A DNA stretch of 32,000 nt from Microcystis aeruginosa NIES-2549 (lineage in GTDB: Bacteria; Cyanobacteriota; Cyanobacteriia; Cyanobacteriales; Microcystaceae). Within the stretch, counting starts at the first letter, position 1, and each line of letters starts with the position of its first letter. Both the position numbers and the translations under genes were made by a program. The stretch covers positions 480,001 to 512,000 of the forward strand of contig NZ_CP011304.1 in assembly GCF_000981785.2 (NCBI RefSeq), in the 5' to 3' direction. Positions 17,771 to 31,053 of this stretch are shown here, one piece after another. The notes below the pieces were generated by a model. It saw only the letters and a list, made by a program, of their open reading frames with translations. It was not told the origin of the DNA and did not search any database.

Positions 17771-18787
17771 TTATCTTTCTTTGTCAGTTAAATCAATATA
17801 TTCAGTTTGTATTCGTTTATTCTTTATTAGTATTCTAAAATACGGACATTTCCCATTTACTGATAAATCTTTATCATCATTCCCTTTCCTGAATTTAATT
17901 ATTTCAAATTGGTCGGGATTAAATTTATGCAAAAATGTTATTGGCACACCCATATATCCCTTGTAATCTATTGGTATATCTTGTGTTTTATTAACATTAA
18001 TTCCATCATAATTGTCATATTTTGGATATTGAACTTCGTTGCCAAAATATCTTTTTGTGAGTTCTATATCTTCGTGCCGCTTAAAATTATCTAAATTAGT
18101 AAGCCATAAACAATTGTTCGGTGAGATTACTCTATTACCAGAGTTATCTATTCGAGTTTCTGTTCCATATAGTTCATAGTGTTCAGGTACAATAAAACCT
18201 GAAATACCTCTACCAAGATTTATTCCTAACCACGCCTTGTTTTCTTTAATAAGTTTGAAAATTTCTTTATAGGTTATTGCATTAATATTTCCAATTATCA
18301 AAAACTTTTTATCGTATTTAACCAATTGAGCTACATACTCTCTGAATAATGAAAATGGGGGATTGGTAACAACAATATCGGACTGCTTTAATAGTTCAAT
18401 GCTTTCCGAACTACGAAAATCACCATCTCCATTAAAGTAAACTAGGTCTGTTGAACTTGGTTTGTTTTTTTCGCCTTCTGTACCTGTATATTCAAAGAAA
18501 AACCCTTTTTCATCTTCTTCTGTATTAAATAAATTTTTTACTTGCTCTCTATAACAAGATGTTATTATTTTTTTAAGACCTAATTCATTAAAATTTGAGG
18601 TAAAATAATTAAAAAAGTTACTAATTCGGGGGTCATCGCAATTGCAATAAACCACTTGATTTTCAAAATGACTTTTATAATGCTGTAATTCGCTTTCTAT
18701 ATCTGAAAGCTGTGTATAAAACTCGTCACTTTTTGATTTTTTAGCTTTTTGTAATAATTCGTTTGTTGCATTTCTTGCCATTTTCAA
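17771..18787 (-). CDS. EcoRI-family N6-adenine DNA methyltransferase (predicted GAATTC specificity), apparently intact
   Basis: DIVVTNPPFSLF (NPPF catalytic motif). The N-terminus MARNATNELLQKAKKSKSDEFYTQ, then VVYCNCDDPR, GDGDFRSSES, PNNCLWLTNLD and GKCPYFRILIKNKR are colinear with M.EcoRI as I remember it. The gene is strongly AT-rich compared with its flanks. It sits 31 bp downstream of the R-gene remnant on the same strand. Confidence 0.8.
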   Translation of the reverse strand: MKMARNATNELLQKAKKSKSDEFYTQLSDIESELQHYKSHFENQVVYCNCDDPRISNFFNYFTSNFNELGLKKIITSCYREQVKNLFNTEEDEKGFFFEYTGTEGEKNKPSSTDLVYFNGDGDFRSSESIELLKQSDIVVTNPPFSLFREYVAQLVKYDKKFLIIGNINAITYKEIFKLIKENKAWLGINLGRGISGFIVPEHYELYGTETRIDNSGNRVISPNNCLWLTNLDNFKRHEDIELTKRYFGNEVQYPKYDNYDGINVNKTQDIPIDYKGYMGVPITFLHKFNPDQFEIIKFRKGNDDKDLSVNGKCPYFRILIKNKRIQTEYIDLTDKER

Positions 18788-18818
18788 CCTATTTTGATTT
18801 AATAAATCTTTGTTTTAG

Positions 18819-19655
18819 TTATTTACTTTTGTTTATCTGATTAAATATCTCACTGCCTAATACTTTAAGAGAGGTTTTAGAAATTTCAAGCATAATATCA
18901 AACATTTTTTTGACATCCCATTTTTCGCCATTTTCTTGTGTGTATATAGAAGTTGCTTGAAGCATAATTGTTTTATCTTTATGCTTGACAAACTTATTTT
19001 TACACAAATTGGTATTAATGAGCATTCCATAATTTGCAGAAGTTAACCTATCTAATCTATTTAGCGTTCCTGAATTTTATTCAATCGTTACAACCCTTCC
19101 ATCGGTTTTTTTAATTGAAATAGTTTCTGTTAAAAAATTTGAGCCTTCCAGAAATAATACATAGGTAAAATGAGATTCGGATAACATCAAATTAGCGATT
19201 TCAGATATGTTTTTATGGGATCTTTCTATCGCATTACCAGCAGCCATCAAATCTTGATCATTTTTTGCTCCTACAAGTTTTCCTGCTTTGATGTTTTCAA
19301 TGTCTTTACCCTGATGTTTAGCTTCCGAAACTAAAACGATTCTCCAATTACCGTTATCATCTTTTACTTCTATTATTCCACCATCGGGTATAATACTTGA
19401 ATTTGATACAAAAAGTGTTTGTCCTAATTCTGGGTCAATTTTCTTTAATGCTTCGTTTATTTCTTCTTTTTTTATGCTCTTTTTGTATTGAAAAGATAAT
19501 TGAGGAAACTACTTTTCAAGCTGTTCAATTACAAAAAGTGAAATTTTTCCAACAGTTCTGTCGTGTGATTTTGCTTCATCTCCAAATATACCAACTACAC
19601 CTTTAGACTCTTTATGTTGATTCGTTAATTTTTTTGATTGATTCTTTTTAGTCAT
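18819..19655 (-). pseudogene. EcoRI-family type II restriction endonuclease gene: full length and in frame, but interrupted by two nonsense codons (TAG 19509..19511, TAA 19077..19079)
   Basis: My manual minus-strand translation from ATG 19655 gives one 279-codon frame: MTKKNQSKKLTNQHKESKGVVGIFGDEAKSHDRTVGKISLFVIEQLEK*FPQLSFQYKKSIKKEEINEALKKIDPELGQTLFVSNSSIIPDGGIIEVKDDNGNWRIVLVSEAKHQGKDIENIKAGKLVGAKNDQDLMAAGNAIERSHKNISEIANLMLSESHFTYVLFLEGSNFLTETISIKKTDGRVVTIE*NSGTLNRLDRLTSANYGMLINTNLCKNKFVKHKDKTIMLQATSIYTQENGEKWDVKKMFDIMLEISKTSLKVLGSEIFNQINKSK. The PD..EAK catalytic motif and the MAAGNAIER recognition segment of R.EcoRI are present. Confidence 0.8.
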
Positions 19656-20052
19656 ATTGTGCCTTTTCTTTACTTAAATCTTCCACTTTCTGCTACAGAT
19701 AATGTATGTATAACTAAAAATTATACGGAAAATTTCTGGATAACACTCCTCAGAGTAACGATATGGGTTAACTTTCGGCATATCACCCCATCTAGGAGCA
19801 ATCGCTAGAAGTTTTCCCTATATCACGCCCAAAAGCCTGTTAGCCAGATTAGCATATTGCCAAAAACCTTGTTTAACTAAATTTCTGACAATTTAGGCTA
19901 ATTCTAGCGACGATTATTTGATCTGACCGCACCCCTTGACAAAAATTTATCATTATTCGATTCGTTTAATTGTCGGGGGACTCTGTAAAGATTTTTTACT
20001 GGGAAATCCACACCCACCAACAAACTTTTTCCAGCAAATCCTAATTCAACCT

Positions 20053-20086
20053 TTTGCTCCTGTACTTTTAGCAGCACAGGAGCAAA
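20053..20086 (-). terminator. 11-bp stem hairpin just downstream of the ccmO stop (possible terminator, non-canonical)
   Basis: TTTGCTCCTGT (20053..20063) pairs with ACAGGAGCAAA (20076..20086), 12-nt loop. On the minus-strand transcript the U-rich tract precedes rather than follows the stem, so the function is uncertain. Confidence 0.35.
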
Positions 20087-20100
20087 GCTGAAAATAAAAA

Positions 20101-20967
20101 TTAATAACCGTCTTCATCGGTGATAACTTCCACGGGAATCACTTCTTCTAACACTTTTTCCTGCATTTCTTGGCGACGAATTGGTATTTTGGTTTTTTCC
20201 AATTCTGGTAAAGCGACCAATTCCCGTTGTTTTTCCCGGACAGTATTGGGTAACAACATCGGTAAAGGTTCGGGAGTTTCTAACCAGTAGCTGGCCACCG
20301 GTAGAGTATGTTCTAAATCTTCCAATAAACGGGGAATAATCATCACCGCGTGCAGTTCACCGATTTTCTCCGCTTCCCGCATTCCCGCATCAATGGCCAC
20401 GGCCACATTAGCGACGGAACCCCGGATAATGGCCGTACACAAACCATCCCCAATTGTTTCGTAGGAAGCTAACTGCACATCGGCGGATTTTAACATGGCA
20501 TCAGCTGCCCCCACCATAGCAGGAAAACCGCGGGTTTCCAAGAGACCGATGGACATATTGCTCAGTTTGCTGAAACCCCGTTGACTTTGGGCAATTTCGG
20601 CTAAACGGCTACCAATTGGGAAAATTACCTCTAAATTGGGCATCGGTCGGGGAATAACCGATTTAGATACCAATTGTCCGAACTGTGCGGCGGTTTTTGC
20701 CCCTTCTTCCACTGCTAAACGCACATCGGCAATATTACCACGCACGATCGCCGTACAGTGACCACCGCCAATTTTTTCGTAACCCACGAGGGTAACTTCT
20801 GCCGATTTTAGCATCATATCCGCCGTCCCGACGATCGCCGGAAAGCTGAGGGTAGAGACTAAACCCAAGGCACTATCTTTGGGGTGACGCTTGGTTTTCA
20901 TCGTCCTTTGACCGGGGTTAGTTGTGGACGAGGGGGGAATGCTTCCATTAACTCTTAATCTAGACAT
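20101..20967 (-). CDS. ccmO: Carboxysome shell protein CcmO (tandem BMC domains plus C-terminal extension)
   Basis: Two BMC-H domains (ALGLVSTLSFPAIVGTADMMLKSAEV.. and IGLLETRGFPAMVGAADAMLKSADV..), followed by a ..VREKQRELVALPELEK.. tail like CcmO. The start may be the internal MKTKRHPKD rather than 20967. Confidence 0.8.
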   Translation of the reverse strand: MSRLRVNGSIPPSSTTNPGQRTMKTKRHPKDSALGLVSTLSFPAIVGTADMMLKSAEVTLVGYEKIGGGHCTAIVRGNIADVRLAVEEGAKTAAQFGQLVSKSVIPRPMPNLEVIFPIGSRLAEIAQSQRGFSKLSNMSIGLLETRGFPAMVGAADAMLKSADVQLASYETIGDGLCTAIIRGSVANVAVAIDAGMREAEKIGELHAVMIIPRLLEDLEHTLPVASYWLETPEPLPMLLPNTVREKQRELVALPELEKTKIPIRRQEMQEKVLEEVIPVEVITDEDGY

Positions 20968-30180: not shown

Positions 30181-31053
30181 AAAGGGGTCGTTTTGAACTC
30201 GACAAGTAAAGAATACGAGAGATATATAGAGCAGTCAGCTATCGGCTTTTAGCTTTTAGCAAATTACTGCTATTTTTTGCTTTTGAGCTTGGTTAACGTC
30301 TCGTTAAAAAGCGAAACATTAACAGCAATACTCTCCCTACTAATTATATTTTACCAATTCTTTTCCAGGAGTTCACTCTGATACTTTTCTTGACGATCTC
30401 TCCAGATCATGGTCTGTTGGTGTTTGTCCCTGTTATACTAAATCCGTTGAGTATAGGCTACATATCAGGACAGGCAAAAGGCAATAGGCAATAGGCAAAA
30501 GGAGCAATAGATAATCAGTTTTTAATAACCAGATTTAGTGTTACACTGTGGGTGCCAGCACAGCTTCCTTGTCTGATTCCGAAATCAGGTTATTTACTAC
30601 TCAATCCACAAAAAAAATGTCTGAAGGGCTTAAATATTAAGCGATCCAAACATTTTCTCATTGCAATCGGAGGGTGATATTGACTTTATGTCTTAACTTC
30701 GAGCTTACGATAGAAACCTGGCTGTTAATGTAGCCTATTTAACCAAAATATCGATTTTTTGCTTATTTATAGGGATAAAAAATGGCCTTTGCTTAAAATT
30801 ATCCGAGTTTAGAGACAATTACTTAGTAATAATCTCCCAATAAGCTAGGCCTCAGAGACCGGCAAGGCATCCTCAAGCCTTGATTTGTCCTTGCTTGCCA
30901 TGGACGGCGATCACCAAGGGCGGAGTTAATCTACCAATACAGATATCATAACTCGATCGAGGGAGAAAAACCAAGAACCTGCGAGAAAATTGCCGATTTA
31001 TCCCGGCCAATATTACTGCTCAGATCGCCCCAGATGATGCCGTCAGTCATTCT

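Follow-up and report, generated by a model that had tools for sequence, protein, structure and literature searches.

A well-known route by which bacteria come to carry solitary methylases is the degradation of the endonuclease of a restriction-modification (R-M) system. The system with which the locus treated here is best compared is the EcoRI system of Escherichia coli RY13 plasmids (PDB 1ERI, 1CKQ; Pfam families PF02963 and PF13651), in which, as in the present case, the endonuclease gene (R) is located upstream of the methyltransferase gene (M) in the same orientation. The promoters of the EcoRI methyltransferase gene, PM1,M2, were located within the 3' part of ecoRIR (PMC3141266). The locus analyzed here is an EcoRI-type, i.e., GAATTC-type, R-M island on the chromosome of the cyanobacterium Microcystis aeruginosa NIES-2549, contained in a stretch of 32,000 nucleotides (contig NZ_CP011304.1, positions 480,001 to 512,000 of the forward strand) that is referred to as the window and numbered from its first letter. 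As judged from its sequence, R is a true inherited pseudogene that appears to decay near-neutrally, while M is intact; the probability of this reading as a whole is estimated at roughly 0.9.

The Endonuclease Pseudogene and Its Inherited Stops

Read on the minus strand from the ATG at 19655 to the TAA at 18819, R forms a single frame of 279 codons including the terminal TAA, with zero indels or frameshifts and with exactly two internal stops, the TAG of codon 49 and the TAA of codon 193 (Table 1). The open reading frame expected for an enzyme of ~277 aa is interrupted at these two codons, and the list of open reading frames contains only fragments of 48, 57, and 68 aa of the R frame. The conceptual protein was searched with the stops masked. 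It was found to align with the PDB EcoRI chains gaplessly over residues 3-275 (phmmer, E=1e-127), to match the Pfam EcoRI profile PF02963 over positions 1-257 of 257 (E=1.7e-144), and to be identical to R.EcoRI in 197 of 273 residues (72%). The closest proteins are the 278-aa EcoRI-family endonucleases of Microcystis, represented by 87 intact alleles, which are 95-97% identical to it. The residues Asp91, Glu111, and Lys113, the segment MAAGNAIER as well as Arg200 and Arg203 are all encoded in the window and are all identical to R.EcoRI. A catalytically complete product can nevertheless not be formed, as translation stops at codon 49, and the in-frame start codon that follows, codon 136, is located downstream of Asp91, Glu111, and Lys113; no in-frame ATG, GTG or TTG is present from codon 50 to codon 135. 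The R locus is, as far as its coding capacity tells, a pseudogene of the EcoRI family and no working member of it.

A first-pass annotation, made from the letters alone, had described the uninterrupted minus-strand frame with two in-frame stops, its colinearity with EcoRI and the positions of the catalytic and recognition residues, all of which were reproduced by the translation and the searches. The comparison with HMMER and Pfam that it had proposed turned out to be highly significant over the full PF02963 profile, and at the orthologous locus, which it had suggested to inspect, intact 278-aa R alleles exist at the same site. Its conclusion that two nonsense codons kill the endonuclease while the cognate methyltransferase gene is intact is supported, and the locus, with R broken and M of full length, is fairly described by its term of an orphan methyltransferase in the making. 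It had also assigned both stops to tyrosine positions, which is correct for codon 193, derived from TAC, but not for codon 49: in the HMMER alignment this codon lies opposite Glu49 of EcoRI, with the next residue Phe50 opposite Tyr50, and residue 49 is Glu in 78 and Asp in 9 of the 87 intact Microcystis alleles, the ancestral codon being GAG.

Both stops were also found in two other strains, i.e., in NIES-2481 (CP012375.1, locus L081), which over 7.8 kb shows 51 differences from the window, and in NIES-3807 (BJCK01000005.1, locus L082). The changes R9K, P184T, and G241E and the synonymous change in G116 are likewise common to the three strains. To these, NIES-3807 R has added L158* (TTA>TGA), S146F, and V166G, and NIES-2481 R has added V166G, V248L, and a 1-bp deletion. 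As the stops are present in at least three strains, of which NIES-2481 and NIES-3807 later gained further lesions, the inactivation predates the split of these strains. Within this small family of pseudogene alleles the R allele of the window is, by the lesions seen, the least damaged. The closest intact allele found (protein P0001 of locus L083, from a sequencing-run assembly) differs from window R by ten nucleotides, nine of these differences being protein-changing.

The deletion in NIES-2481 affects a homopolymer that is absent from the functional R gene. The changes AGA>AAA and CCC>ACC converted ATTAAAAGACCC to ATTAAAAAAACC, and NIES-2481 is one A shorter. This run of seven A residues constitutes a small worked case of substitutions building a slippage hot spot.

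These alleles most likely go back to an ancestor of the NIES-2549/NIES-2481/NIES-3807 lineage, which gained E49* (GAG>TAG) and Y193* (TAC>TAA). R has since drifted near-neutrally, gaining missense changes at otherwise invariant residues, and the sister strains have added the homopolymer frameshift (NIES-2481) and the third stop (NIES-3807).

Table 1. Positions of the features of the EcoRI-type locus in the window.
Feature	Position	Strand	Remarks
Low-G+C R-M island	17688..19736	.	2.05 kb; 0.27-0.32 G+C, flanks 0.40-0.50; beside ccmO
EcoRI-family type IIP restriction endonuclease pseudogene (R)	18819..19655	-	Translation, phmmer, Pfam, Microcystis alleles
Nonsense codon 49, TAG from GAG (Glu)	19509..19511	-	Pairs with Glu49 of R.EcoRI; common to L081 and L082
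Nonsense codon 193, TAA from TAC (Tyr193)	19077..19079	-	Common to L081 and L082; alone in mosaic L088
Catalytic PD...(D/E)XK	19317..19385	-	Asp91 19383..19385, Glu111-Ala-Lys113 19317..19325; between both stops
Recognition segment Met137-Arg145, MAAGNAIER	19221..19247	-	Same as R.EcoRI
A7 homopolymer	19106..19112	-	Made by R183K (AGA>AAA) and P184T (CCC>ACC); site of the 1-bp deletion in NIES-2481
Lineage missense span	18831..19631	-	R9K 19630, I33R 19558, P164T 19166, R183K 19108, P184T 19106, L191I 19085, P212L 19021, G241E 18934, T275N 18832; synonymous G116 19308
Intact M.EcoRI-family N6-adenine DNA methyltransferase (M)	17771..18781	-	336 aa; NPPF motif; Pfam PF13651
R-M spacer, R stop codon to M start codon	18782..18818	-	37 bp; zero lineage-specific change
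Terminator-like hairpin overlapping M stop codon	17749..17771	-	Weak; consensus scan only
Two sigma-70-like hexamer pairs in 3' part of R	18862..18991	-	Candidate M promoters; 9/12 matches, weak

The Methyltransferase Gene

M is located directly downstream of R and is co-oriented with it. Its product matches the Pfam EcoRI methylase family PF13651 with E=1.3e-130, is identical to AKE62850.1 (NIES-2549) and AOC51241.1 (NIES-2481) and shows 73-75% identity to M.EcoRI-family genes on small enterobacterial plasmids. Full-length M with the NPPF motif and without stop or indel was found in 17 of 17 Microcystis alleles, ten of them from strains in which R is broken. The changes unique to window M comprise three synonymous ones and one conservative replacement, and neither the R upstream region nor the R-M spacer has any lineage-specific change. 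With its cognate R dead and M intact at the same locus, the enzyme would be a solitary methyltransferase.

M would still be made and would methylate GAATTC (GA-m6A-TTC), transcription starting from promoters within the 3' part of dead R or, alternatively, in the upstream region, which is unchanged. Rho is not known from cyanobacteria, and polar effects of the nonsense codons on M are therefore expected to be small. Internal M promoters in the window are weak candidates, named by likeness to EcoRI (Table 1), and the promoter scan returned 6 sigma-70-like sites versus 10.9 in shuffled sequence, which is no excess over background. The dead R sequence may have been kept, and not deleted, because M promoters sit in its 3' part, as is the case in EcoRI.

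It was considered whether both genes are decaying, M being intact merely through lack of time and no maintained orphan existing at all. A dead R exerts no post-segregational killing that would hold M in the genome, as is established R-M biology, and the private M variants, with synonymous to non-synonymous counts of 9:9 in broken-R strains and of 8:10 in intact-R strains, indicate modest constraint in both groups. The distribution of secondary disruptive lesions fits poorly with such a joint decay, as R genes acquired four of them after their inactivation, against none, neither stop nor indel, in the longer M of the ten broken-R strains (p ~0.04 under equal rates). The M replacements across the alleles are moreover conservative (I>V, K>Q, D>E, L>I), and the window and NIES-2481 share an identical M (1011 nt) but differ at 5 sites in R. 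Joint decay is consequently regarded as improbable, albeit worth keeping in view, and the data are modest evidence that M may still be maintained after the loss of R.

Mode of Decay of the Endonuclease Gene

Compared with five syntenic Microcystis alleles, window R possesses 11 unique substitutions, which are 10 non-synonymous changes, including the two stops, and one synonymous change. The eight non-stop replacements are R9K, I33R, P164T, R183K, P184T, L191I, G241E, and T275N; a further replacement, P212L, is also present in one of the five syntenic alleles and in 2 of the 87 intact alleles. None of the 87 intact Microcystis alleles has K9, R33, T184, or E241, T164, I191, L212, and N275 are each found in one to three of them, and the positions 9, 164, 183, 184, 191, 212, and 241 are invariant across 20 more distant 278-aa homologues and EcoRI. 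The R gene of the window has a G+C content of ~30%, with nearly all G and C at codon positions 1 and 2, and under neutrality G:C>A:T/T:A changes in R are expected to be synonymous in 15%, missense in 73%, and nonsense in 11% of cases. Of the 11 window-lineage substitutions, ten belong to this type. Given this neutral spectrum, two stops and a ratio of non-synonymous to synonymous changes (N:S) of 10:1 are what drift predicts. The changes specific to the pseudogene clade (9 non-synonymous, 1 synonymous) show no difference from 80% non-synonymous (p=0.38), and the N:S of the window-lineage unique changes is 10:1 for R versus 1:3 for M (Fisher p=0.03). R is accordingly decaying at a roughly neutral rate.

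The substitution spectra of both genes differ sharply. Seven of the 11 lineage changes in R (18832..19630) are G:C>T:A transversions, whereas all four lineage changes in M (17930..18653) are A:T>G:C transitions. Some R alleles counted as intact also carry private replacements, such as I23L, T197M, G243S, and V248L in Microcystis sp. T1-4 (L005) and W246R in BLCC-F210 (L004), and certain full-length R alleles may be functionally dead already.

The first-pass annotation had interpreted R differently, namely as the product of a very recent and possibly selected knock-out by two tyrosine-codon stops in an otherwise undecayed gene. Each stop is indeed one base away from a sense codon, the window allele has no indels, the catalytic and recognition residues are all still encoded, and the further losses of R in Microcystis described below are compatible with selection against R. 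The gene is, however, far from pristine, with its eight further replacements, mostly at conserved residues, against one synonymous change, and with a codon 49 that was a glutamate and not a tyrosine codon. The knock-out cannot be called very recent either, as the stops are common to three diverged strains, of which NIES-2481 and NIES-3807 have since gained lesions. Selection for the first hit is conceivable, but drift suffices, since two stops among about ten G:C>A:T/T:A changes are near the neutral 11% for each. A clean and recent knock-out is therefore considered very unlikely.

Several observations weigh against inherited near-neutral decay next to an intact M. In N:S, the pseudogene clade differs from the intact R alleles (14 non-synonymous, 12 synonymous) only at a borderline level (Fisher p=0.06), in part because the alleles classified as intact show a high N:S themselves. 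T164, K183, I191, and N275, which are four of the ten window-specific replacements, are present in the closest intact allele, P0001/L083, and may thus predate the inactivation of R. The activity of M and its specificity for GAATTC are predictions. GAATTC is mildly under-represented in the window, with 4 observed versus 9 expected sites in 32 kb, a sample too small to say much.

Two explanations under which R would still be active can be dismissed. Readthrough or recoding of the stops, or fragments forming a split enzyme with persisting low-level restriction, would be in line with the preserved frame and the intact key residues in the window, but two distinct stops, TAG and TAA, would each require suppression, a scan of the window for transfer RNA genes found none, the sister strains have either a frameshift or a TGA as a further stop in this gene, the replacement of invariant Pro and Gly residues by missense changes indicates that constraint is lacking, and the catalytic segment cannot form a separate fragment as a start is missing within codons 50-135. 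A sequencing or assembly error, or a strain polymorphism with a truly intact and active R, had been named by the first-pass annotation as an alternative, and consensus errors can yield single-base stops; the stops are real, as they recur identically in two other independent assemblies, so that three assemblies of different strains and projects agree, and they are accompanied by common missense changes at invariant residues.

Repeated Loss of the Endonuclease in Microcystis

Lesions in R were screened in genome loci, in metagenome contigs matching the codon-49 region and in a cluster of N-terminal fragments; the locus (L) and protein (P) numbers are those of this analysis. Besides the E49*/Y193* allele, at least seven further independent knock-outs of R were found in other Microcystis. 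Three of them are frameshifts or insertions: L091 has a +1 change at nt 190, L100, L101, and L104 have a +1 change at nt 519, and in P0128 the frame is disrupted after codon 73 by a frameshift or an insertion. In five loci, 16 bp are deleted near nt 197-216, which results in 71-aa products (P0123-P0125, P0129, and P0131 on 67 contigs in total). The nonsense changes are S86* (L002, strain LEGE 91341; P0127), E68* (L089; P0126), and, as predicted from the protein alone, probably E44* for P0130, a product of 43 aa that breaks off ahead of the Glu44 codon. A secondary Q79* was found in L087. Together, the loci with broken R are L002, L086-L089, L091, L095, L096, L098, L100, L101, and L104, and the corresponding proteins are P0123-P0131. 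M is intact in each broken-R Microcystis locus where M is covered. Rough contig counts are ~279 for intact close R alleles, with the intact P0008 alone on 124 contigs, versus ~90 for shortened N-terminal fragments, numbers which, owing to biased sampling, give the order of magnitude only.

The locus L088 (VYKP01000551.1) is a mosaic, as it contains Y193* without E49* and shares with the window only the patch I191-*193-L212. This could result from recombination between alleles or from a chimeric metagenome-assembled genome; the Y193*-only patch hints at allele exchange.

The frequent loss of R could be due to a cost of self-restriction or to redundancy amid dozens of R-M systems. For the genome of Microcystis NIES-843, 62 putative R-M genes were reported, along with 27 solitary methylases and the disruption of several R-M loci (PMC2779907). 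A more far-reaching and rather doubtful proposal is that the EcoRI-type locus forms a population-wide on/off polymorphism, in which R was lost adaptively at least eight times at one site with M retained as immunity. The cost of self-restriction or a freer gene flow would then favour the loss of R, and M would be kept as immunity because homologous recombination with R-positive neighbours allows either state to be regained or passed on. The idea that R was made useless by a phage-borne EcoRI-type methylase was dropped, as a search of the phage collection revealed no such gene in any Microcystis phage.

Locus Setting

The R-M island is found at the matching chromosomal site, adjoining the carboxysome gene ccmO (20101..20967), in other Microcystis. 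On the side of the island opposite to ccmO, VapBC-like and MazEF-like toxin-antitoxin pairs are encoded. In the window these are a VapB-like/PIN pair (16897..17525) and an antitoxin/PemK-MazF pair (16051..16708), located on the minus strand directly downstream of M within 16051..17525. R-M unit and toxin-antitoxin pairs form a small addiction or defence cluster beside ccmO. Two unrelated short elements flank the R-M/toxin-antitoxin region, one of 96 nt (16763..16858) and one of 125 nt (19729..19853), which recur 41 and 29 times, respectively, in the retrieved Microcystis loci and are probably miniature mobile elements. No pair of direct or inverted repeats bounding the island was found within 16500..20200. 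The segment between ccmO and R (window 19656..20100) is variable across strains, and in L100-L102 and L104 it contains two additional genes, one for a kinase-like protein of the AAA_33 type (183 aa) and one for a protein of unknown function (265-271 aa), neither of which is present in the window.

The search for Rfam families in or near the R-M genes gave no match. Elsewhere in the window, the nitrogen-stress-induced small RNA NsiR4 was matched at 30614..30694 on the minus strand with 49.9 bits, the gathering score being 40. At least 14 palindromic hexamers have zero copies in the 32-kb window, e.g., GAGCTC, ATGCAT, CATATG, GTCGAC, and GACGTC, which fits the heavy avoidance of restriction sites that is typical of Microcystis.

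Comparison With Known Systems

In the literature searched on restriction or the methylome of NIES-2549, nothing specific to this R-M locus was found. The public records name a 68-aa fragment of NIES-3807 'type II restriction enzyme EcoRI homolog' and the NIES-2549 protein 'EcoRI methylase/methyltransferase'. The locus would be better annotated as an EcoRI-family pseudogene with a probably active solitary GAATTC methylase. It is predicted that the DNA of NIES-2549, NIES-2481, and NIES-3807 resists EcoRI and that methylation of EcoRI sites matters for the transformation of other Microcystis strains with an intact enzyme. The alleles furthermore provide a staged example of the origin of an orphan methylase, from nonsense to missense changes to a homopolymer made by substitutions and finally to slippage. 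The finding is real but ordinary, a textbook EcoRI-type unit with R a pseudogene and M retained, and its significance is modest because family, system, and process are well known. The repeated independent loss of R across Microcystis with M always kept is the one aspect of mild interest.

Compared with the EcoRI system, R of the window is colinear over residues 3-275 and M shares with the M.EcoRI-family genes of plasmids the NPPF motif in addition to its sequence identity. In contrast to EcoRI, the locus is chromosomal and cyanobacterial, resides beside ccmO and toxin-antitoxin pairs, and has a predicted activity and specificity, and its R has two nonsense codons and eight replacements at conserved residues. 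The intact Microcystis R-M alleles (P0008, which is of the NIES-843 type, and L001, L003, L004, and L005) are ~97.5% identical to the window in nucleotide sequence across the 2.05 kb of the island and occupy the same site by ccmO, but encode a full 278-aa R, unlike the window allele. An independent regulatory role is neither known nor suggested for M of the window. As in other solitary methyltransferases that originate from degraded type II R-M systems, an intact M adjoins its degraded cognate R, and the window represents an early-to-middle stage of this decay, in which the frame of R is recognizable from end to end.

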